Shown: positions 1,343 through 59,192 of the stretch, in pieces | Position numbering within the stretch: the first letter of the stretch is position 1 | Layout of the letters: each line of letters starts with the position of its first letter | Assembly: GCA_001938485.1 (NCBI GenBank) | Contig: MQRK01197295.1 | Location: 8,506 to 68,792, forward strand | Reading direction: 5' to 3' | From: Girardia tigrina | Taxonomy: Eukaryota | Length of the DNA: 60,287 nucleotides | Position numbers and translations under genes: made by a program | The notes under the pieces: model-generated | What the model saw: only the letters and a program-made list of their open reading frames with translations | The model's database searches: none | What the model was told of the DNA's origin: nothing

Positions 1343-2545
1343 TAGGTCCAAAAAGTAAGACTAGATTTCCATTTCAATGGGATAAATCTCCCATCATAAA
1401 TATTTTATATTTAAGACGAAAGCATTGTGTCAGGCATCTGAGCCAAATTTCAAGTCCAAAAATTAATTAATATTTGCTTTACACTAGATTTTGTACGTAG
1501 CCAAAAGCCTATTGGAACAATGCTTTTTCAGAAAGAAATGATTACAAGTGGCATAAAGATGGTCATGAAAGTGTTGAAGACGAAAAACATCTAAACGACG
1601 ATCCATCTCTACCGATGAACAACACGTCAAACAAATCGCAAAATTTGAGCTTGCTAATCGTTGAATTTAGTAATGACCGCAGTTTTTACGCCGGATCTCG
1701 TCAGATCTCCGAAGTTAAGCAACCAACGGCCGCATAAGTAATTATTTGGGTGACCGATAGGGAAATCGCGGGGCCCTTGACTACAAGTCAGGTCAGGCAA
1801 ACTGTCTGCTACAGATAACATGTAAACCTGTAATACCTGTCCAATAGTCGAACAGTTGGCGACTAAACCGGCTCGCTTACCCAGAGAAACCTGGGTGAAG
1901 ACGTGTGTGGACACCTAGCAAAATGAGAAACAAGACCTACCAAAGGGCGGATGAGCTCCTTGGAGCCAATGGTCATCAATACCTGGAGAAGAAATATGCG
2001 CCACCAGGCTCCTTGACTACTGAGACACTCAAAAATATGCAAAACCAACCCATTGCTTGCGCATAAGTGAGTGCACCCCCGGCCCAAAGGCTACGGTACC
2101 AAAAAAAATCGTTGAATGGCGTTGTACATATAAAATTCCTTTCACCTGGTCAAACCATCATCAAAGACTATTATATGAGTGTTATGCATCGTTTGTTAGA
2201 AACTGTTCACAATAAGTGATCGGAATAGTTGGAAGATAAATAGTAAATTTAGCATCTCAATTATGCATCTTCTAGAGACTGCACTCATTCGCCAAAAATT
2301 CGATAAATATATCATTCTAAAACCTCTATAATCTATTAATTTAGTATCTTGTGAATTAAGGCTAGTACAGAAACTACAAATACCACTGTAAAAATATATT
2401 TTTGAAACGATAGAAGAGATATATTTCGGAAGAGTATTTTAATTCATGTTTCAAGGACTCAAAATATGTGTTTGTATAAGTTTATGATTTCGGATTACTT
2501 TGAAAGTGACAAAATTGATTTGGTAGAATAGATAAAACATTTAAA
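1343..2545 (+). mobile_element. Degenerate mariner transposon relic (irritans-like), interrupted by a SINE
   Basis: Broken transposase peptides YKWHK-DGHESVEDE, STDEQHVKQI, GVVH..FLSPGQTIIKDYYMSVMHRL and C-terminal DYFESDKIDL (GDYFEGD-like). Many stops and frameshifts; right TIR not found. Confidence 0.75.
1667..2106 (+). mobile_element. 5S rRNA-derived SINE (SINE3-type), ~440 bp, with poly(A) tail and 11-bp TSD
   Basis: 1667-1783 resembles 5S rRNA (ACGCCGGATCTCGTCAGATCTCCGAAGTTAAGCA; box A-like AGTTAAGCA; box C-like TGGGTGACCG; GGGAA). Ends GGCTACGGTACC plus an A-run. Flanked by the direct repeat AATCGTTGAAT at 1656-1666 and 2107-2117. Confidence 0.85.
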
Positions 2546-3400
2546 ATACATAAGACAAATATAATATATATTAATGACTCGTGAAAGGAATTATCGTCTT
2601 ATTATCAAAGAAATTATAATCAAATAAAAATCGAATTGTGCCATTTGGCAAATTTGATGCTTGACTACTACTTGATAGAAGAACAATTTTACCGGGTGAT
2701 CAATTAGATGTTTTTTCTACTGAAATCAAACAACTGATCAAGACTGGGTCATCAATATATTTTGTGCAATGCCGCTCATTCGCAGCTTGCTAGATCAATT
2801 AAAAAGACATACAATCAAAATTGGACAATGATTTCACATTTAAAGGTGTAGTAAAACATGGCTAAAAAGATATCACTTCAGCGTTATAACCAAAAAGAAG
2901 TTGTAGGAATTCACAACAAACTTATATATGTCGGTTACAATCGACTTGGACACTCACAAAATATGATTAAGTGTAAATTTTTTAAGTGAGGCAAAATCTG
3001 GCACATTAAATCAACTTGCAAAGTATTTGGAAATGACAGTAGAGACAAGGACCTCTTTCATTTAAAGGAAATAGGACCAAATGTGCAGTTAGATGATGTA
3101 ATAGGACAACTTCTAGCAATAGTTACGTCTTTAAAACAATGTTCCGCTGAAAACTATGCCAATCATGGGAGCATGAATCATCTTAAAGATTTTCACCCTT
3201 AAAATGCAATTGATAGGTAATTGAAGGCAAGAATCTGTTCAGTGGTTTAATATATTTAAAAATTCAGTTTAAAGTTATTTACTTTATCAAAATTAATAAT
3301 TTCTTTTTAATAATTAAAACCTTGAAAAATCTTATTGTAATTTAAAATGTAAATAATGCGGGAACAATTAATCATTACGAACATCCAAATACCGAATTTA

Positions 3401-5216: not shown

Positions 5217-6880
5217 TTTCGGTTGTTTAGTAAATGAATATTGAATTGTTTGAATAATGCCATTTTTACAATTTTAATAAATATAATTTACTTTAAAGGG
5301 TGACGAAAAAAATTAAACATTATTATTTATGAAAATATTATTGGGTAATAATGTCAAAATATTTTAATTAAAAATTTTAAGTATTGAAATAACCTTACTT
5401 TGCCCATTCTGTATATTAATTGATGGGTTGTAGTGTCTTATTAGTAGAGATTCACAAAACTGTCGTTCGTAATGTGAATCAAAACCCTTTTGTAGAACAG
5501 AAAACTCATCTTTTGAAATGGATGAGGTTCTNNNNNNNNNNNNNNNNNNNNNNNNNNNNNNNNNNNNNNNNNNNNNNNNNNTAGAACAGAAAACTCATCT
5601 TTTGAAATGGATGAGGTTCTATCCTTACAACATAACCAATGATCAAGAACCTTACTCGATCGACTCATTTGCGAGTGCTCGCTAATCCGGGTTTTGAGAG
5701 TTTAAATTTGAGTTTAAATTTATATACCAGATTAGCTTTCAAATCACAAACTGTTTTCGATTTGTTTGAAAGGAAACTTTGAACTTTGGATGTGACAGAG
5801 ACTACTTTATTCACTTTTAGTTCTACAAATACTCTTCTTAAACGCTCTAAATCCTTCAGAATATGGAATTTTAATGATTTGTTTGTATTCTTCAGTATTT
5901 TCTTATTTTAATTGTTTTTTAACTCGTGCATCTGTACATAATTTGTCTAATGTTACTCTAATGTTGTGTTCTATTTGCTTGTTTGTATACATATTGTCCC
6001 TCAAGCGCCTTCTAAGAATATTTAAACCCTGATTTGTAATTTCAAAACTGGACGACAAATTCCAAACTCTGTGAACAAGCCCTTTGATCATATCCTCTCT
6101 GTATTTTTCCTCACAAAAACTCTGTGGTGTTGTGTAAAGACCTGTATCTGTTGCCTTTCTGAATAATTCAGTTTTATAGCGTCCATTCATCCTAGTGACA
6201 AGAATGTCCAGAAAAGGAAGTTTATTATCTACTTCCAATTCTGTGGTAAATTTAATATTCGAATGAAGACCATTCATGAATGTTAGGAATGGTTCTATGA
6301 GGGATTGATTTCTGAAAACCAAAAAGACATCATCCACATATCTCTTGTACAACACAGGTTTTTCACCAGGGTATGCATTCATTTTATCCTCAAGCGACTT
6401 CATAAATATTGATGCCAAAGTTGGTGCTAATGGGTAACCCATTGCGACACCGTCTTCCTGAATGTACCATTCATCATTTAAAAAAGGTACATTTTTGGCA
6501 CAAAATTTTAGAATTTCTTTCAGTGCCTGCTTGTTCAAATATTTTATTCACAGAGCTAGAGTTTTCATCCCACATCTTTTCACACAAATCAATGGTTTCA
6601 TCGATAGGTACGTTTGTGAATAAACTGGAGACATCAAATGAGACCATACACTCAGAATCACATTTCGGCACCTGATTCAAAATGAAATCTTTGAAATCAA
6701 AGCTATCTCTAATCTCAAAATCATTTGAAATTAAAGGAATCAATAGTGAATCAAGAACCTTCGCGACTCTGTACTGAACCGTGTCAATCATTGATAAAAC
6801 AGGGCGGAGTGGATGACCAGCTTTATGTATTTTTAGTTAGACCATACATTTTAGCTGGTTGTGAACCCTGGCATGTCAAC
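5175..6880 (-). mobile_element. Penelope-like retroelement, 5'-truncated, frameshifted RT plus GIY-YIG remnant
   Basis: GSQPAKMYGL/KIHKAGHPLRPVLS, SFDVSSLFTNVP, QEDGVAMGYPLAP, RYVDDVF, LPFLDI, FRKATDTGLY (ORFs 6474-6791 and 5903-6538). Endonuclease remnant NLVYKF...LKTRISEH. 3' hammerhead motif. Confidence 0.93.
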
Positions 6881-6959
6881 AATTTTGCACGTAAAACACA
6901 TAGGTGTCGACTAAAACATTTTCAAAATATTGTAAAAGATGGCAAAACAAAAAAACAAT

Positions 6960-7190
6960 TGTTGGAATGGAGCGAAGGAATGAAAACCTCGACATATCAT
7001 TTAAAAGTTGATGTAATTAAATAGGCGCATACACAAATGATCAAGGAAATTGTGGTGGTTACAGAATTTGGAAGCCGAAGAAAGATTAAATGAAGTTGAA
7101 GAAATAATTAATCTAAACCCATGAATCAGTTTAAGGAATATCAACAAGAAAATTCTTGAAACTAAGCACGGCTTCCGCAAATAAGTCATT
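6960..7190 (+). mobile_element. Possible Tc1-like transposase HTH relic
   Basis: EERLNEVEEIINLNP*ISLRNI resembles the second HTH of Tc1-like transposases; very decayed. Confidence 0.25.
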
Positions 7191-7264
7191 CCAAACTATA
7201 AATTAAACTTTAATTTTTAAATAAATTTTTTTTGATAATAAAATAAATAATAAATAAAATTTTA

Positions 7265-7830
7265 TATTTAAAAATTCCATATTCCGAAGGTGCTAGGGAT
7301 TTTAAACGAATTTTAGAAAAACAGACCCCAGCAAGTGTTACAATTAAAGTTTTGTTTCTAACTAATAAAATTTCTAATTACTTCTCAAATAAATCTAAAA
7401 CACAATTGGGTATGAAAGCAAATTTAGTTTACCAATATAAATGTCACAAGTGTGAATCCTTGTACATTGGAGAGACAAATCGTCATCTCCGTACTAGAAT
7501 TGCAAAACATACCCAATCAAGTAGAAAAAGTTCAATTTTGGACCACATAGTGAAATGTCATGGAACTCAGAGGGTATTTGATAATGATTTTCGGGTTTTG
7601 ATTAGTAACTTTGATCACAATTATGAAAGGACAATTACTGAAGCACTCTTGATAAAGTTTTGTAAACCTAGTCTAAATGTGGAAAGTGATTCGTCCAATC
7701 ATATTAGAGTATTTTGACGTAACATACTGTGACGTAATGGTCATCTTTCTATATAAACAATAACTTTCTAATTAAATACAGAACTGAAGATGCCACAAAA
7801 GTGGTGAAACATGTTTTCCAATAAAAATTT
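7265..7830 (+). mobile_element. Penelope-like element 3' fragment: GIY-YIG endonuclease plus pLTR
   Basis: KIPYSEG...ANLVYQYKCHKCESLYIGETNRHLRTRIAKH...EALLIKFCKPSLN (ORF 7352-7717), then TGACGTAA x2, TATATAAA (~7750), a hammerhead and AATAAA. Confidence 0.93.
7781..7818 (+). ncRNA. Minimal hammerhead ribozyme of a PLE
   Basis: GAA-CTGAAGA-T-GCCAC[AAAA]GTGGT-GAAAC-AT-GTT-TTC: intact core, stems I and II, palindromic stem III ACATGT, GUU site. Confidence 0.88.
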
Positions 7831-11194: not shown

Positions 11195-12389
11195 CAGGGG
11201 TGACCATAAGTCGCTTTACCCAGTTTTAATAATAATAAACACAAAATTCTAAATGATACAACTTTTATTTAATCAGCGTACAATAATAATTTCAAAACAA
11301 AAACTTAAAAACAATTAAATCTTATCTTCAAAGTGTTGTCCTTCAGATTTAATACACAACTAGATTCTTCTCTGAACAGTGTGAGAGATTCGTCGGTACA
11401 AGTCTTTATCGTTGTTCAAGGCTGCAAATTCTGTAGTAATTTTTTCCTTCAACTCGGATACGGTTAGAACATTTTGTGAGTAAACGCGTTCCTTCAGGAT
11501 ACCCCACCTTGAATAATCACAAGGTGTCAGGTCAGGTGATCGTGGAGGCCATTCAGTGGTTCTTCTCCTGCCGATCCACATCTCAAAAGTGTTATCCAAA
11601 AAGTCGCGTACATTTCTACCATAATGAGGGGGAGCACCGTCTTGCATCCAAACGTCTTTATCTGTGTCAAGCTGAGGTACGGCAAAATCACGCAGCATGT
11701 CGAGATATAGCTGAGAATGGACCGTTCCATCAAAGAAGTATGGACCCAGCACACCAGTTGAACGTATTCATCCCCACACACAAATTCCTGGAGAAAGATT
11801 GTTGGTCTCCCATACCAGATGAGGATTCTCAGTGGAGTAGTACACGGCATTATGCAAATTAACGTGACCATTCAACTTAAATGAAGCTTCGTCAGGCCAA
11901 ATTATTCTGTCCCTGATGTCAATGTTCTCATGGAGTTGTTGCTGTAATCATTCGCAAAATTCTATGCGCCTGTCATAATCGTCATCATTCATTTGATGGA
12001 GCAAACGAGGTCGCCTAACTTTCAACTCCATGTCCTTCAATATTCTACGTAAACTTGTGCGTGGTATATGCAACTGTAAACTTGCACGAACTGCAGATGT
12101 TGATGGCGCATTCTGATAGAAAGTTCTAACATTTTCTTTATTTTCATCGGTATTCATATTGTTAGGGCGCCCACTTCTTTTCTTGTCGGTTACAGAGCCG
12201 ATCTCGTGAAACTTTTGTGGTGCCATGCCAATTTTACAAACAACAATGAACAAAATGAAATAATTTAAAAATTTTTTAAATAAATAATTATTAAAACAAA
12301 CAATTTTATCTGGATTTTGTTTATAAATCATTTAGAATTTTGTGTTTATTATTATTAAAACTGGGTAAAGCGACTTATGACAACCCCTG
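11195..12389 (-). mobile_element. Full-length Tc1/mariner-superfamily element (DD40D, rosa/DD41D-like) with disrupted transposase
   Basis: ~63-bp TIRs CAGGGGT(GAC/TGT)CATAAGTCGCTTTACCCAG..., TA on both sides. KKRSGRP, WPDEASFKLNGHVN, QDGAPPH...WPPRSPDLTPCDY with 40 residues between the 2nd and 3rd Asp. In-frame stops. Confidence 0.92.
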
Positions 12390-16005: not shown

Positions 16006-16178
16006 TAAGGTGTACAAGTATGAAATGCGGATTTCAGAAAACGGATTGTGCACAATGCAACGCAAACACAAAACCAACTGGCAGAGCAATTAAGTGTTAC
16101 TCAACAAGCTGTTAGCAATCGCCTCAGGCAGATGGGAAAGATTCATAAGATCGGCCGATGGGTACCATATCAATTGAA
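16006..16178 (+). mobile_element. Internally deleted mariner 5' end (mauritiana/Mos1-like), running into a gap
   Basis: TIR-like TAAGGTGTACAAGTATGAAATGCGG followed directly by QTQNQLAEQLSVTQQAVSNRLRQMGKIHKIGRWVPYQL (WVPHEL motif). Confidence 0.88.
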
Positions 16179-17370: not shown

Positions 17371-17730
17371 GGCAACTCGTTACACGGACATAGGAAATAC
17401 GGGTCGATCTTTGTCGATGAGGCCAGTCTCGCTAACACCGAGTCCGAGATGAAGAATTTTGAGTTGGAGAGTTTCACGATCAATTCGCACATTGATTCAG
17501 AGTTGCACCATTACCATCACCACAACACAAAGAATCAGATGATTGTTATAAAACAATTAAAATATATGGGCCCAGCTCAATCAAAACTTCAAGAATTGAC
17601 TGCGTAACCCGACTGCATCAGTCTGATTCTCGGGGCAACCTAAGGGTCGGGCAGAACAAAGCCTTTAATGCTTGTGCATAATTGAGTGCACTCACATCCA
17701 AACGGCTACGATACCAAAAAAAGAAAAAAA
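17371..17730 (+). mobile_element. Probable 5'-truncated non-LTR retroelement 3' end sharing its tail with the SINE
   Basis: GC-elevated island with a 78-codon open frame ending TAA at 17605-17607, then TGCTTGTGCATAATTGAGTGCAC...CCAAACGGCTACGATACC plus poly(A), matching 2054-2108. Confidence 0.65.
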
Positions 17731-27216: not shown

Positions 27217-28191
27217 TTACCATTGCAGAGATGCAGAATTTTGCAAATATTTGCAACCAATTTGCTTTGATTTAATTATTATAAGTGAAAAGTTCAATGA
27301 GGCGGTTGCTCCAGACACCGACGTGAGGCGTCGAGCGGCGACCGCGGCAAGATGAGGCGATGACCCCGTTGTTGAGTCGACGTTGGCGTAAGCACACCTC
27401 GAGCGCGGAACTTCCGTCTGTTCCCACATTGATGCGAGTAGATAGTCCAGCTCTCTATGGCCGTCGGAGAACGGACAACTATCCTCTCGCTCGACAACAC
27501 GTTCCTGAATGTAAAAGGAAAAAAACGAAGAGGCGAATCGTTCAACCAACCGAGTTGGGATGGCAGATTTTCGAACAGAGGGGCAGCCATCACGCCCAAA
27601 CGGCCCATCGTATCTGGTTTTCCGTTCTTCTAGATATTCGATTTGGTCTTCTCTCATGCATAAAATGACTTTCGTTCCTCGGCAGATCGACTCGCTGTTG
27701 TCGGATTTGACGGTGGACGAACCGCCCGCGGACGATTCCCACAAATGCCGCTCGCCGTCGTTGCCCTTGGAAATCACTGGAACTTTGTCGGCGACCAGAT
27801 ACGATGGATAGAAACCGACACCGAATTGACCGATTTTCGAGATGTCGGCACCGGCTAGCGGTGCCTCCATAAATGCTGTGATTCCAGATCTAGCGATCGT
27901 TCCAAGATTGTAGATGAGCTCGGCTTTCGTCATGCCGATTCCTGTATCGATGAGAGCGAGAGTGTCAGCATCTTTGTCCGGGATGATTTTGATCATTGGT
28001 TCTTTGGTGGTGACGGGCACGGATGGATCCGTCAAGCTTTTGTAACGGATTTTGTCAAGCGCATTGCTGGAATTGGAGATCAATTCCCGAAGGAAAATCT
28101 CTTTGTTAGAGTAGAACGTGTTGATAATTAGACTCATCAACTGGGCGATTTCGGACAGAAAGGCGACTGTCTCGGTTTCACAGTCGGACAT
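27217..28191 (-). pseudogene. hsp90: Truncated Hsp90 copy: N-terminal ATPase domain (~191 aa, 27619-28191) fused in frame to ~133 aa of unrelated sequence
   Basis: [75 protein letters not shown]. Intronless, substituted at normally invariant sites, lacks the middle and C-terminal domains. Confidence 0.85.
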
Positions 28192-29468
28192 GATTAGAGT
28201 TTAACTGTTTTTTTTGATTTTGTGGTTCGAGTTTTGTAAATTATTGAGCTTATTTAAACAAGTGTATTTTTTGATATAATTTGCTAATTTTTTTTCGCTC
28301 GAATTTTTTATTTTTACATTTCGATCACTACGTTCACAATTCTATTTTTTAATCGTTTTTTTTTGTTATTTAAAAAAATTATTTTGATTTGATTTTTTTT
28401 AATTCACTACAATAAGTAACGGCGGTACTTTACTTTTATCTGGTATTATCAACTGAAATATAATGAGTGTTTGCTAAATCCAGAAAGATTTGAATTTTAT
28501 GACTCAACAATGACTTGTTATAGCAAATAAAAATGTAAAATCCTTAACAATTGTCTACATGATATAAACTATAGTCAAATTTCTGCCTTCAAGTTGACCA
28601 TTTATCGGAATTCATCATTGATTTCTTTAAGTATATAGGGTCTATAACATTATAAGGTCTGCGATGCTTAACAAGACAAAGAGAGCTTTAGTCTAAAGCA
28701 TGATAAGTATACCAACAGTACCGTCGTCATAAGGGACGGTAAGTTTGTTTTCATGGTTTAGGTAATCGTTGACGAGAACCACTCCAAGATGACTAATCAA
28801 CTAACTAAAAACTTTGAGACTGAAAAGTAAATAGGTTAACCTTGATTAGACTGTATATATTCCAGTAAGAACTTGCACCGACGCACAAGATAAAAAAATC
28901 AAGGCCGGATCACTAATTTTCAGGCTTTTGGCATCCATCGTTGCCAGACTGTTACCCTTTAATTACTACGTATAATGTAAGTGTTAGGAATTAATAAATT
29001 ATAGAAATAAGGTTAAAATAAATATGTACAAATTAATATTTAGATATATTTAAATATTTAAAGTTTGTGAAAAAAATTTTAAATATTAATAAGATTTAAT
29101 TAAACAGTTAATAATTAAGAAATTTTTGATATAGTTTAAAATATAATATACAAATTAAAATGTAGGTTTTTTAAATGTGTAATGATTTCAAAAATTAATA
29201 AAACTAAACGAAATGATTAAATATTTACAATGTCTTCGTAATTTACAATTGATAAAATTTAGTAAAGATAAAATTTTTAAAATTAAAATAAAATAAAATA
29301 TTAATATTATAAGTATTTTGATTTATACCGGTTTAAGATTTATAAAACTAATTGTTTCTTAAAAAAATAAGTTTTTTTAAATATTAGTTTTAAAAATCTT
29401 TTTATGTATTATAATAAAATTTGAATTTCGGAAATAATTTGTAACCATAATTCCGAGGACGTTCCAAG

Positions 29469-40330: not shown

Positions 40331-41970
40331 GTTTTAGATAATACATGTTTGTATGAAAATTTTATTGTAGGATAATAATAAACTGTAAAATTACTTAAAA
40401 GAGTTTATTAGGTCTTACAATTGGAAAGATAATATTGTCTGAACGAATAAAAAGATTATTGTAACTACCGAAACGCTCGGATTATTCGAGATCCATTAAG
40501 TAGCCTAGCACAAATATAAAAGACAAATTCAACTGTTAATATTTTCCATTATAAGAAAAATATTTTTACTACATATTAGCCATTTGTCTTTTGTGTGAAT
40601 GAGTTTCTTTGCGAAGATTAAAGATGTTGATATTTTTTTTCTGACAGAATGTATAGAAATATATGTGGTTAGAAAAATTAAAATTTTTGGTTGTTCGACT
40701 AGTCACATTAATCATTTATTCCAGCTCGCAACTGTCGCGGGACGCCATCGGGCGCGTCACTTACCCCCCCCCATATTTCTTACAATTTACTTTTGTTCCT
40801 TCCATTTCCACGGCATACTACTAAGCTTTAGTTGTTTACTACTTCATCTATCATAAAATTCCATCTTTAACCCTAAAAATTCTAAAGTTTATTTCAATAA
40901 TATTGCAAATTTGTATGTAATGTGAAACATTTAGTAGGTTGACTGAAAGGAAAGAAGGTTCATATTATAAGGATACAGATAAGAAAAGGTTATATATTAT
41001 TTATGGTGGTCTATTCAATCATATTTGTTAACAAATAGGCAATGTGGGGAGTGATGATGTCTAAGATGACCAAAAAATAATTTTACTTATTAAAATAAAT
41101 CATTTCAATATTTTTAGAAATTCTTTTCGTGAATAATCAGTTCATTTAGGTCTGTATCTGAGTTAGTCATAGACTTCACATATATATGTCTATTTGACAT
41201 CAGTTCCACAAACTCCTCCTACAAAAGGATGTTACCAAGATGTGAAGTATTCCCATCACTTGATGTTGTCGATCATAGTTTGAGCGTATGTGGGTAGAAA
41301 CAAGACACCTATGACTAGGAACGACAGGTGTCTCTGGCAGAATACAGACAAACAGCCGCGCCGCAAGATTATCTGCAACAAAATATTGTCTATACAGAAT
41401 TGTCTGAAACAAGATTACTTATGTATCAAATCGTCTGCAAAAAAAATGATTTGTAAACAATATTGATTTGTTTACCATAAAAATTACATTATTACATAAG
41501 ATAAATCTTTCATTTAATTTTGAATTTTGATTTTACTTAACTCTTCTTTTCATTTGGTTTCAGATTTGCTTCATAGCCAAATATGTCATAACAAAGTACT
41601 TAGATATCAAATAGTCAACAATTTTCGACGTGTATTATTTATTTAAAATACTTACTGCTTATTAGGTTTACAAATGCTTCACAACATATTTGTTAAATCA
41701 GTTAAACATTAATATTGTCATTCATATAATGTGTTATTTAGTGAATTTTAAAATTAAAAACTGAAATATTACTTTAGTAGGTTAAATAATTTTATAGTAA
41801 AGCAGGAGACCAAGACCTTTCCGTTAGTTAAAAGAACGTTTAATAATGACGTTTTAGATATATGTAGAAATACAAGATTTCAGTTTTTGTATATATTATT
41901 AGTAAAAATACAATATGTATATAATTTATTCATTAATAATACAAAAATAATATTTGTTAAATTTCTTCAG

Positions 41971-42574
41971 TCAAATTCATCTGTCCCTCGCCAAAATTCT
42001 CCTCAACACAAAATATGCTTGCCACGAAACAAAGTTATTCAAACTGCAAAAGCGATCAGCTCAACATCACAACAACCTGTTCAAATTCCCATTTATTTAA
42101 ATGAGGCACAGATTGCAGTGCTCAATTCTAAACATTCCCCAAAAGACGCCTCCAGACCTCACACCAACGAAGCCAATAAGTGTACGAGTGCGACCGCCAA
42201 ATTAGGAACTAATCCCGCCTTAATATCTTCAACACTTCAACAACAACAGCAACAGCTTATAGCACAACATCTCCATCAACATCAAACTCACAATTACTTG
42301 CATCATGTTGCCTTAGGTGGCAATAATGAGAACAGCGTCCATAATCCCGATCACACCAGTGCAAATCAGAGTGGCAATACAGTCAGCTACTTGATTTCAC
42401 CCAACCTTTTGGTCAGTCACAGCCAATTGTCCCAGCTTCACCCAAGAGATTTAGCAATAATTCAACAGAAATTACTCCATCAGCAGCATTTGTATCAACA
42501 CCAGCAACAGTTGCAGTCGGGCTCAGTATCCAATCAGCATTTATTGTGTACTTGTCCCTCCGAACTACATCGAG
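41971..42574 (+). CDS. Large internal exon of an unidentified Gln/His-rich protein gene
   Basis: TTTCTTCAG acceptor (phase 0), GAG|GTAGTC donor (phase 1), 201 open codons, Q/H-rich, raised GC. Confidence 0.8.
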
Positions 42575-43074
42575 GTAGTCTTCACACTCTTTTCTCTATT
42601 CCTATTTTTCTTACTCATATTGATTTTTTACTTTTTAATTAATTATTTTTGATAAATAATTTTCCAAGACTGAAAGAAGTTAGTTAATTAATCAATAAAT
42701 TATTAACATATCTTAAAGAATATTTTAAATATTTTTTATAATAAATATAAATAATATTCTCCTTGAAATCTTAAAATTATAAATCATTAAATCAGAGTTT
42801 TTCAAGCCAGTTTTTATGTTGAATATTTATTTTTTGATTTTATATAAATATTCTTTTTAATAGGAATCGATAAACAGCTAAAGTTTATACTTTTTTATTT
42901 ATTAACGGGTTGAAACATTACAGATTCAGATTCTTAAACTATGTGATTATATGAAGCAACATGGATAACAACTACCATTAAGGGTAGAAGCTTCATCGGT
43001 CTTGAAGATGATTTTTCCTTCAGGAGCATAACATATATTATTTTCTTCTATCAAGTTCAGATTTATTTTAGGTA

Positions 43075-44428
43075 TTAAGTTGGTCGAAGAATAATGGCGG
43101 TTTTTGAACTTTATACTTTGTTTATCTACTTTGATATGTATATAAGTTTAAATGCATTAGTGTTAGATATTATTTGAAATCTTATGCCTAGCTGTATATT
43201 CCTATAGCNNNNNNNNNNNNNNNNNNNNNNNNNNNNNNNNNNNNNNNNNNNNNNNNNNNNNNNNNNNNNNNNNNNNNNNNNNNNNNNNNNNNNNNNNNNN
43301 NNNNNNNNNNNNNNNNNNNNNNNNNNNNNNNNNNNNNNNNNNNNNNNNNNNNNNNNNNNNNNNNNNNNNNNNNNNNNNNNNNNNNNNNNNNNNNNNNNNN
43401 NNNNNNNNNNNNNNNNNNNNNNNNNNNNNNNNNNNNNNNNNNNNNNNNNNNNNNNNNNNNNNNNNNNNNNNNNNNNNNNNNNNNNNNNNNNNNNNNNNNN
43501 NNNNNNNNNNNNNNNNNNNNNNNNNNNNNNNNNNNNNNNNNNNNNNNNNNNNNNNNNNNNNNNNNNNNNNNNNNNNNNNNNNNNNNNNNNNNNNNNNNNN
43601 NNNNNNNNNNNNNNNNNNNNNNNNNNNNNNNNNNNNNNNNNNNNNNNNNNNNNNNNNNNNNNNNNNNNNNNNNNNNNNNNNNNNNNNNNNNNNNNNNNNN
43701 NNNNNNNNNNNNNNNNNNNNNNNNNNNNNNNNNNNNNNNNNNNNNNNNNNNNNNNNNNNNNNNNNNNNNNNNNNNNNNNNNNNNNNNNNNNNNNNNNNNN
43801 NNNNNNNNNNNNNNNNNNNNNNNNNNNNNNNNNNNNNNNNNNNNNNNNNNNNNNNNNNNNNNNNNNNNNNNNNNNNNNNNNNNNNNNNNNNNNNNNNNNN
43901 NNNNNNNNNNGATGCTGGAATCATCCACTATAGTTTCTTGAATCCAGGTGAAACAATCACAGCGGAGAGGTACTGTCATGAAATTGATGAAATGCATAAA
44001 ATATTGAAAACCCTTTGTCCGGGATTGGTTAATCGAAAAAGTCCCATCTTTCTTCATGATAATGCTAGACCTCATATTTCAAAAGTGACTCTTCAAAAGC
44101 TTAATGAGTTGGGCTATGAAACCCTGCTTCATCCACCATATTCACCAGACCTCTCGCCAACGGACTTCTACTTTTTCAGGCATTTGTACAACTTCCTACG
44201 TGAAAAAAATTTCATAAACCAAAATGATGCTCAAAATGCCTTCCAAGAATTCGTCGCTTCGAGAACCGATGCATTTTATGCGGATGGAATAAAACGACTT
44301 GTTTCTCGTTGGCAAAAATGTATTGATACCAACGGTTCATACTTTGATTAATAAATTTTTGTTTCTGTGAATTTGCACGTCTTTGAAGTTTGTGTCCCAA
44401 AACCGCCATTATTTTTCGACCAACCTAA
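43075..44428 (+). mobile_element. Mariner DD34D (cecropia/Hsmar1-like TIR), both ends present, centre in a gap
   Basis: TIRs TTA(A/G)GTTGGTCGAA(G/A)AATAATGGCGGTTTT with TA on both sides. HDNARPH...HPPYSPDLSPTDF (34 spacing), RWQKCIDTNGSYFD; visible ORF uninterrupted. Confidence 0.95.
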
Positions 44429-54660: not shown

Positions 54661-55675
54661 TATCATCTGAATCAGTTCTGTTAATCGCAGATGAGATTCT
54701 GGTGACTGAGATTAATTGTTGTCATTGTGAACAGATCCCGGTTCTGATTGACGGCCACTGATCGAGGAGACCGGGTGATCTGAACCACTTGAATCAGATG
54801 AGGATCATTCCATTATTAGAATATACCTTTCTATTTTCTAATTACAAAAAATAAAAATCTATTTTGTTTTCATTAAATTTTTATCTGTTTCTTTTTATTT
54901 CATCTTATGAGACATAAAACATCTTTTTATTATTTTACAGAACGATTTTTATAAAAATTATTTGATTTAGATTTTATGTTGTCGGAATTGATATTTTGTG
55001 ATTGAAAAGGAAAATAAAAAATAATAATTTAATTAAAATTTGATTTCAATAATTAATAATTTTACCTCCTGAAGTCATTAAGTACCAGATTTATATTTTG
55101 AAATATTTTAACTATAGATTTGTACTAAAATGAATTAAAAATGCGTATTTTAGACAATAAAAGAAAAACATCAACAAATATTTTTTTTACCAATACTTTT
55201 GGGGATTGTGGGAGGTACAATGGGAAAAACTAACGCAAATTGAACAAAACATTTATTCAAAAACTAGAGATAGCCAAACTAAACTTTTTCGTCTACTGCG
55301 AGTATAAGACCCCTTTAAAAATTTTAAAAACAAGATAACACTCTTTGAAAATATTAAGAGCGATAAAATACTTTATTTTTTTGTAAATTTGCAAGCTCTT
55401 TCAGTTGTTTATTTTTCTTAAAAAATCTGAAATAAAAATCATTGAACATCCTCATCACTTTTAAATTATATTTTTAGAACATTTCCTTTCTTGAAAAACA
55501 AGAAAACCCTTGTGATTCGAGTATAATACCCCCCAAAGCTTTTTAACTAAAATTTTGAAAAGGCATAGGATAATACGGATTATCTTATTTATTAAACCTT
55601 ATAAAGTATATTTAATAATTTTTTGGGATCATATTTATTTAATGTAAATGACTTATTTTAATTATCCCATTGTAG

Positions 55676-55698
55676 CGATGCATGTGCAGCAACAACAA

Positions 55699-55733
<35 letters not shown>

Positions 55734-56078
55734 ACGATTGCTGGAACAAAGAAAGCTTTTAGCAGCTCAATTGTCGACGATGCATCCTGGTCAATCGATG
55801 AAGATCACACCAGTTGCAGCCAGTACGTTGCCAAGGGATCAGCATAGTGCTACCCATCATATGCATTTGGGGAAAGTCGATATTCAAACGCAAATGGCAG
55901 CCGCTAGTCAAGCACATTTGTGTCATAATCATCAATTAAATCTTCAGAGACAAGTTGATTTGGTAGACAATGCCAACGCCGCCGTCGTTACGAACACAGA
56001 ACTGACCGACACTCAAGAGAAGGATGGGCATACGTGTGTTCTAAACAGCTCTGCTGACTCTGGGTACAGTTCCAACAG
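55676..56078 (+). CDS. PolyQ-containing internal exon of the same Gln/His-rich gene
   Basis: TTGTAG acceptor (phase 1, compatible with the donor at 42574, giving ...ELHR-A-MHVQQQ), long CAG/CAA tract, CAG|GTATGC donor (phase 2). Confidence 0.8.
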
Positions 56079-56341
56079 GTATGCAATCTACTCAAAAAGT
56101 TCATTTTTTTCTTTTCATTATTCCATTAGTGATGTCGAAATTGATTTGGGAAAGATTTTAAAACTGTAATTGATTTTAATAGATTTGGAGATTAATTATG
56201 CTTTTGACAATTTTTGTTCTCACAAATAATATTATTAATTTTCTTTTTTATCAATTTAAGTACATTAATCTCAGATAAATCGTACTTTGAATAATTATTT
56301 TAGCTTTGTTGAAATGTTTGGGAAAATACAAATACATATAT

Positions 56342-57979: not shown

Positions 57980-58675
57980 AAATTTATTTTTTACGACAAT
58001 TAATTTCGACGGTATAACCGTCATCGTCAGGTCTCAAGAAAGAAATGAATTTTAAATCTGCTTATATAGGCNNNNNNNNNNNNNNNNNNNNNNNNNNNNN
58101 NNNNNNNNNNNNNNNNNNNNNNNNNNNNNNNNNNNNNNNNNNNNNNNNNNNNNNNNNNNNNNNNNNNNNNNNNNNNNNNNNNNNNNNNNNNNNNNNNNNN
58201 NNNNNNNNNNNNNNNNNNNNNNNNNNNNNNNNNNNNNNNNNNNNNNNNNNNNNNNNNNNNNNNNNNNNNNNNNNNNNNNNNNNNNNNNNNNNNNNNNNNN
58301 NNNNNNNNNNNNNNNNNNNNNNNNNNNNNNNNNNNNNNNNNNNNNNNNNNNNNNACGTCTCTCCAATGTATGTGGCATTACACCCATTACATGTAAATTT
58401 ATATACGAGATCCGAACATAATCCAAATGGGGTTGGAGATTTATTACAAAACACATTTTGGATTTTATATTTTGTGATATTATTTTTAAATTAAAGACAT
58501 TATTTACGCATTTTAAAATTGAACGTATCATATTATATTTGTATCGAGATTCACAAAAACTATTTGGGGTTGTATATAACCCAGTATCAGTTTTTTGTGA
58601 ATCTCGATACAAATATAATATGATTAGAGGACTAATTTTTCGATCTTGGTCATTATCATCAACTTATACAAACGT
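57980..58675 (-). mobile_element. Penelope-like element 3' fragment with an internal inversion
   Basis: TDTGLYTTPNSFCESRYKYNMIR (RT thumb) and DLVYKFTCNGCNATYIGET (GIY-YIG), then a gap, then TATA and hammerhead. The plus strand carries FCESRYKYNMIRGLIFRSWSLSS. Confidence 0.9.
57995..58033 (-). ncRNA. Minimal hammerhead ribozyme of a PLE
   Basis: GAC-CTGACGA-T-GACGG[TTATA]CCGTC-GAAAT-TA-ATT-GTC; palindromic stem III ATTAAT; TATATAA ~30 nt upstream and AATAAA downstream. Confidence 0.85.
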
Positions 58676-59192
58676 TTTTTTTAAACATAATTTGCCATTA
58701 TTTTTAAATTTTAGAATATTTATTAAAAGATTTAAAAAAATTTTCATGTGTTAAAAAAGTATTTGGTGACAGTCATAAAAATTAATTTATACATAGTGCC
58801 TCACAATTACGTGAACTAATAAATTTGCTAATCCTCCATCCGAAGGTTGTTAAAAATGAACTCTCAATTTAATTTTGTAAATTCAACGGTTCTCGGATTA
58901 TAATTTCATTGATATTGTAAATACAGGATGTAATATTTTTTTTAAAAAAAGATCCAAGTCTCGCAAGCAATTTGAGGCATTCTAAGATTGTAAAAATTTG
59001 AAAAGTAGAAGTGGGTAAGATCGACATTTTATAAGATCGAATACTTTAATATGAACGTACACTTAAATATACGCAGCCGTCCTTTTAATCCTGAAAGTCT
59101 CTGAAATTTAGTTATATAAGGAAAGAATGAAATTGCAATGAATTTTTCATAATGTTTTAACATTTAGTCTTATGTTAATTCCATTTAATATA

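Follow-up and report, generated by a model that had tools for sequence, protein, structure and literature searches.

Background

SINEs with a head derived from 5S rRNA (SINE3 type) are uncommon; they have originated on several occasions. In Ped-1 of the springhare the 5S head is combined with parts of an RTE-clade LINE, its partner being BovB_Pca (PMC3747384), and the element is listed as bipartite in the accessible part of Kojima 2018 (PMC5786205). In the same text, CoeSINE5 (coelacanth), HaSE3 (Helicoverpa) and SINE-1_Pmo (python) are given a 5S head, a middle part from an RTE 5' UTR and an RTE 3' tail, while SINE2-1_EC (horse) has a tRNA head and keeps both extremities of an RTE. Structured RNAs have been described at the 5' ends of RTEs themselves, namely twister variants in Perere-3 of Schistosoma mansoni (PMC8501958) and HDV-like ribozymes (Ruminski 2011, via PMC5786205). 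For planarians, expansions of SINE/5S and LINE/RTE have been reported in Dugesia as class labels (bioRxiv 10.64898/2025.12.11.693146, as far as the accessible part of that report goes).

The DNA analysed here is a stretch of 60,287 nucleotides from Girardia tigrina (hereafter, the window), in which an initial annotation had placed a 5S-derived SINE, flanked by target site duplications (TSDs) and inserted in a mariner element. The element is a real SINE3, whose combination of 5S head and bipartite RTE design is known from other animals. Added to this are a class of headless copies starting at the junction of head and LINE, and an unclassified, covarying fold predicted at the 5' end of the partner LINE.

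Results

Anatomy of the window copy

The head (1667-1784, plus strand) accounted for the sole Rfam match above gathering cut-off within the window. The cmsearch proposed for 1667-1783 with the 5S model RF00001 gave a significant match at 1669-1783 (41.7 bits against a gathering cut-off of 38 bits, E 4.9e-7, model positions 1-120). Aligned with a 5S gene of the host (L031), 94 of 119 positions were identical, among them 15/15 in box A (1713-1727, plus strand; gene positions 50-64), 5/6 in the intermediate element and 16/18 in box C (1743-1760, plus strand; gene positions 80-97), the box limits being those of standard 5S numbering; the 5S-like head with box A- and box C-like elements is thus borne out. 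The whole insertion is framed by the 11-bp TSD first described, exact at 1656-1666 and 2107-2117 (plus strand); no other pair of flanks that was compared gave a longer match. Head and body meet at 1783-1786, and on the plus strand the body (1787-2052) is followed by a tail (2054-2100), of the ~50 nt originally reported, and a short A tail (2101-2106), which together with the first two bases of the 3' TSD makes up the 8-nt A-run (2101-2108) taken for poly(A). The initial annotation had called the body unrelated sequence of ~270 nt; the length holds, and the sequence turned out to be the 5' end of a LINE (first ~266 nt), comprising its 5' UTR and first codons with an ATG at 2037-2039 (plus strand). 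Five of the six reading frames of the body contained stops, and one reverse frame was open over 105 codons.

In the family majority, which was built from 16 heads (one of them entered on the wrong strand), similarity to the host 5S gene rose to 104/119, and the type-1 internal Pol III promoter was retained, with 14/15 identical positions in box A, 6/6 in the intermediate element and 16/18 in box C. Conservation was higher in these boxes than in the 5' part of the head (40/49). A 4-nt deletion upstream of box A was accompanied by a 3-nt extension at the 5' end, an offset that would be expected if the internal promoter sets the start by distance. No T run of at least four was present in 12 of the 15 correctly oriented full copies. 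The window copy has a run of five Ts at 1683-1687 (plus strand), near its start, which is likely to act as a Pol III terminator, and this copy is therefore probably silent. It is also only 86% identical to the young reference copy L296, and in itself represents an ordinary insertion.

The SINE probably lies inside a decayed mariner, as had been claimed. On its left, 1347-1655 (plus strand) was 67-71% identical to two decayed copies elsewhere in the genome (L188 and L189); the match to L188 ends where that locus has one copy of the target word, and the translation of L189 is what we take to be a mariner-like DDE fragment. On its right, a DDE-domain fragment resumes at 2118-2216 (plus strand), where a weak Pfam match to Transposase_1 (PF01359) covered 33 aa in translation and, at 21.6 bits (E 2.1e-4), fell below the 24-bit cut-off. 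The piece of transposase that should link these flanks seems to have been deleted, and a tblastn search with another mariner ORF of the window returned no match in the SINE flanks. Further Tc1/mariner transposase fragments are presumably present at 11360-12331, 16024-16170 and 43167-44351, to judge by their motifs. Elsewhere in the window, fragments of Penelope-like RT and GIY-YIG sequence occupied 5903-7717 and 58052-58754 (a YIGE motif near 58400 is followed directly by an assembly gap), an intronless and decayed reading frame at 27217-28200 (minus strand), which we assume to be Hsp90-like, is probably a processed pseudogene, and glutamine/histidine-rich open frames at 41758-42642 and 55648-56169 (both plus strand) may be exons of a host gene.

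The copy family

Searches of the 1.43-Gb genome with the body and with a near-majority copy gave 3,124 and 3,620 first-look candidates, respectively, which are rough counts, with 40 candidates scored per search. From 140 fetched loci, 80 distinct copies were obtained, 68 of which were at least 90% identical to L296 and are referred to as young. These samples consist of the top matches of a few queries, one of them itself a headless copy (L007), and are biased towards young copies with a complete body or tail. Young copies diverged by 2.9% from their majority sequence, ended in 57 of 68 cases in a run of 6-9 As, and carried a TSD of at least 8 bp in 28 of 68, relative to a mean of 0.69 (maximum 3) in 200 random pairings of flanks. 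The full element is short (439 nt), non-coding, dispersed and multi-copy. Older headed subfamilies exist at 73-84% identity, although searches aimed at them returned mainly LINE copies or the young family. Members were also present in contigs of public runs under four organism codes and in some metagenomes, where the summed depth does not amount to a copy number.

That the locus could be a one-off 5S pseudogene, or a unit of a 5S array with its spacer, can be dismissed almost entirely. One-off joins of 5S and LINE sequence do occur in this genome (L039, L044 and L047), but the same head, 4-nt deletion and junction recurred in 30 of the 68 distinct young copies, in different flanks and many with TSDs, and these dispersed headed copies refute such an origin. 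The true 5S genes of the host, which scored up to 107.8 bits, are followed by T-runs and other sequence without the SINE body; all or part of the body followed 9 of the 29 fetched 5S loci. The genome-wide search with the body, which the initial annotation had recommended, accordingly returned a multi-copy family with TSDs and not an array spacer, and with the 5S head, its promoter and the high copy number the SINE3-type assignment stands.

Some further loci deserve mention. In two copies (L023 and L028) the 5' part of the head was inverted, resembling twin-priming inversions. Within the window, 53 nt at 17669-17721 matched the SINE tail and A-run beside an unrelated repeat; the DNA upstream of it is a different repeat without a link to the LINE, and the segment itself is probably a strongly 5'-truncated copy of either SINE or LINE. 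In L037 and L041, complete genes for 7SL (SRP RNA), scoring 212 and 203 bits in Rfam, were arranged in tandem with a second, divergent type of 5S.

The partner LINE

Loci encoding APE endonuclease domains were collected by genome search, and in 16 of 60 (several of the 16 being duplicates) the DNA immediately upstream of the APE ORF matched element positions 121-386 at 76-82% identity. In the loci that were extended, the match to the body began at the first base of the LINE, and the SINE tail matched the last ~47 nt of the LINE in 5 of 17 (76-80%). Both SINE-matching ends were found 3.2 kb apart in L143, which terminates in GAA repeats. The LINE encodes APE and RT domains, and its homologs are single ORFs of ~1,000 aa, several of them named 'craniofacial development protein 2-like', a name that we take to mark RTE/BovB endonucleases. 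An element of ~3.2 kb with a single APE-RT ORF and a 3' end of short repeats has the characters of an RTE, the single ORF being read from layout and homologs since the genomic copies are broken. Judged by its layout, its domains and the names of its homologs, the partner is thus an RTE-type LINE.

None of 24 LINE rows carried the 5S head, and 19 of these copies started at the first base of the LINE. The SINE can be described as a bipartite RTE derivative, with the middle from the RTE 5' UTR, the tail from the RTE 3' end and the interior deleted, which places it in a sub-type described in the accessible text of Kojima 2018 (PMC5786205). Older headless bipartite forms with larger pieces of the LINE (L282, L287 and L341) comprise LINE positions 1 to ~330 plus 3119-3227 and fit a stepwise shortening. 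As SINE and LINE were only 76-86% alike and differ in their ends (A-run and GAA repeats, respectively), the active partner may be a sister subfamily outside the sample.

Proposed origin and mobilisation

Taken together, the window element is very probably a decayed member of an abundant SINE family with a 5S head, built on the two ends of an RTE LINE and likely to be transcribed by Pol III and copied by LINE enzymes. By analogy with the general SINE/LINE model, and from the anatomy of the copies, boxes A and C would direct Pol III to initiate at position 1, the RTE endonuclease/reverse transcriptase would bind the shared 3' end and act in trans, and insertion would proceed by target-primed reverse transcription at AT-rich sites. 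The element itself probably arose when an RTE RNA with an internal deletion was joined, at its 5' end, to the 3' end of a 5S RNA. With the partner LINE, older intermediates and one-off chimeras all in one genome, the assembly of the SINE is traceable.

The chimeras just mentioned (L039, L044 and L047) have a 5S copy that lies 2-6 nt ahead of an element whose 5' end carries an HDV-like core; L044 continues into the APE ORF of another LINE family. All three look like one-off 5S/LINE joins of the same shape as the proposed origin of the SINE. Of 15 loci with the HDV-like core, seven (L087, L091, L100, L101, L102, L137 and L039) had upstream of it coding sequence for a Penelope GIY-YIG domain that stops at the YIGE motif or close to it, which suggests that the LINE family with this core targets Penelope.

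Headless copies

Among the 68 young copies, 38 started downstream of position 11 and were thus 5'-truncated. The 5' starts were distributed as follows: 30 copies started at positions 1-11, 17 at 117-128, five at 310-317, four at 30-31 and 12 elsewhere. The 17 headless copies, about a quarter of the sample, were concentrated further, with 13 starting at reference positions 119-121 (1783-1785 in the window), 2-4 nt before the start of the LINE; only one started at the LINE's own first base (reference 123). An initial sample contained 19 truncated copies, of which 12 had their starts within 6 nt of one another (binomial p 3e-11, the 6-nt interval having been picked post hoc). TSDs were about as frequent in headless as in full copies (8/17 and 13/30, respectively). 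Reference positions 119-121 correspond to the last two pairs of the terminal helix of the head or the base that follows: in young heads the two ends close a helix of 13 bp (last pair at 1784), compared to 9 bp in the 5S gene. The cluster at 310-317, similarly, coincides with the foot, on the 3' side, of a further predicted hairpin.

The likeliest cause of the headless copies, with roughly an even chance of being correct, would be arrest of the reverse transcriptase, which, running 3' to 5' on the RNA, may halt at the foot of the 13-bp helix. It is favoured by the position of the starts, at the end of the helix and not at the first base of the LINE, and by the second cluster at the foot of a predicted hairpin. 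Against it, four of the 68 starts, at 30-31, lie inside a 5' strand and at no helix foot, and the predicted feet at ~140, 167, 186 and 209 were without starts in 28 tail-anchored rows. If a cellular nuclease cut or trimmed the transcript where the 5S-like helix ends on its 3' side, in the manner of the 3' maturation of 5S RNA or tRNA, and the downstream piece was then copied, this would coincide with the same positions and make a separate headless lineage unnecessary, but leaves unexplained the second cluster, which is inside the LINE-derived body; this explanation is considered rather improbable. The headless copies could also be transcribed by Pol II from a promoter inside the LINE 5' UTR, or descend from a separate headless master of the same age, that is, a bipartite non-autonomous RTE. 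Headless bipartite derivatives are a known class (PMC5786205, accessible text), longer headless forms exist in this genome (L282, L287 and L341, above), 5' ends of L1Tc are described as a dual promoter/ribozyme in the accessible part of PMC3383444, and an AU test did not reject a single headless clade (p 0.056), a result that also counts against arrest. Headless (13) and headed (24) copies, on the other hand, did not differ in majority sequence and were equally diverged, hence of equal age; the headless label required 12 changes on a tree, relative to 11.2 when shuffled, on branches none of which was well supported; and headless copies retained the 2-4 linker bases of the SINE junction that are missing from LINE copies. 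An own promoter or master is therefore regarded as unlikely.

A final candidate is a pseudoknotted RNA at the 5' end of the LINE, which might act as a self-cleaving ribozyme and remove the head from some SINE transcripts ahead of their copying. A predicted fold of six helices and two pseudoknot pairings accommodates the first ~90 nt of the LINE (1787-1873 on the plus strand of the window, where the structure is worn). Across nine sequences, the same from which the fold was drawn, 95.5% of cells paired and 5 of 30 pairs changed on both sides, which was equalled by 2 of 500 shuffles; three of the five two-sided changes come from one distant sequence, L192. This metagenome RTE, with only 36% identity in APE, has the motif, with compensatory changes, at the corresponding 5' end (1512-1608). 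The covariation and the retention of the fold at such protein distance speak for a functional RNA of this kind, as do the sharp starts of the LINE (one base in 19 of 24 rows) and the position of the fold, which occupies the very 5' end of the LINE; in other RTEs this is the site of HDV-like or twister ribozymes (PMC5786205 and PMC8501958, accessible parts). Against it, the headless starts were spread over three positions, all 2-4 nt short of the first base of the LINE, and the head was kept in 30 of 68 copies. Rfam gave no match for the fold (best E 4.9), and on 20 related RTE loci one weak HDV match (L202, E 0.042) besides chance matches of miRNA type. A descriptor for HDV-like ribozymes (P1/P2/P3/P1.1 nested pseudoknot, 3-bp P3, 7-8-nt loop) found nothing in L141, L151 and L192, having recovered two of four expected positives, and a twister descriptor, run without positive control, was likewise empty; the twister UAA cleavage loop and the conserved G-A after P2 were absent at the matching places of the alignment (table in the accessible part of PMC8501958). 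A pattern search for the motif in viral contigs gave no matches, and a covariance model of it recovered, from 96 sources, only its training members (the window and L192). Beheading by a ribozyme is accordingly rated as a quite doubtful cause of the headless class. More doubtful still is the stronger form of this proposal, that the fold would be a self-cleaving ribozyme of an undescribed class, captured intact behind the 5S head, so that part of the SINE transcripts behead themselves and seed promoterless copies. If true, it would provide an instance of the conflict predicted by Kojima, who expects 5' truncation of SINEs carrying such ribozymes (PMC5786205, accessible text).

With arrest of the reverse transcriptase as the preferred explanation, the large headless class would offer a measurable case of RNA structure limiting the copying of a SINE, and it bears on why SINEs seldom keep the extreme 5' end of an RTE.

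Comparison with known systems

A literature search, conducted outside subscription journals, Repbase, Dfam and SINEBase, found no account of the anatomy of this family or of its RNA fold. The suggestion in the initial annotation that the SINE3 might be undescribed in this lineage is weakened: SINE/5S has already been reported for Dugesia as a class, and the accessible part of that report gives no anatomy. The Dugesia classes resemble the present case in that 5S-type SINEs occur with an RTE expansion in planarians; the numbers there are class-level counts, without anatomy, partner or truncation pattern in the accessible text, and may include the family of the window. A gene on another contig of the genome points, weakly, to a flatworm host: among its named top matches Macrostomum showed the highest identity (46%), while the best score went to a bivalve.

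In having a structured RNA, here a predicted one, at the exact 5' end of the RTE, the partner LINE is comparable to Perere-3 with its twister variants and to the RTEs with HDV-like ribozymes (accessible parts of PMC8501958 and PMC5786205), whereas the fold itself matched neither class by Rfam or by the descriptors, whose controls were weak (HDV) or lacking (twister). Ped-1 is like the SINE described here in its 5S head, joined to a 5' and a 3' part of an RTE-clade LINE; it is mammalian and of independent origin, and the likeness is one of architecture as given in the accessible sources. The architecture of CoeSINE5, HaSE3 and SINE-1_Pmo is also the same, although the RTE-derived segment of CoeSINE5 and HaSE3 measures ~50 nt and comes from within the UTR, whereas here it comprises ~266 nt from the first base of the LINE (PMC5786205, accessible text). 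In this last respect it resembles SINE2-1_EC, in which the extreme 5' end of the RTE (positions 1-221) and its 3' end are likewise kept (same text), with a tRNA head in the horse element and a 5S head in the planarian one.
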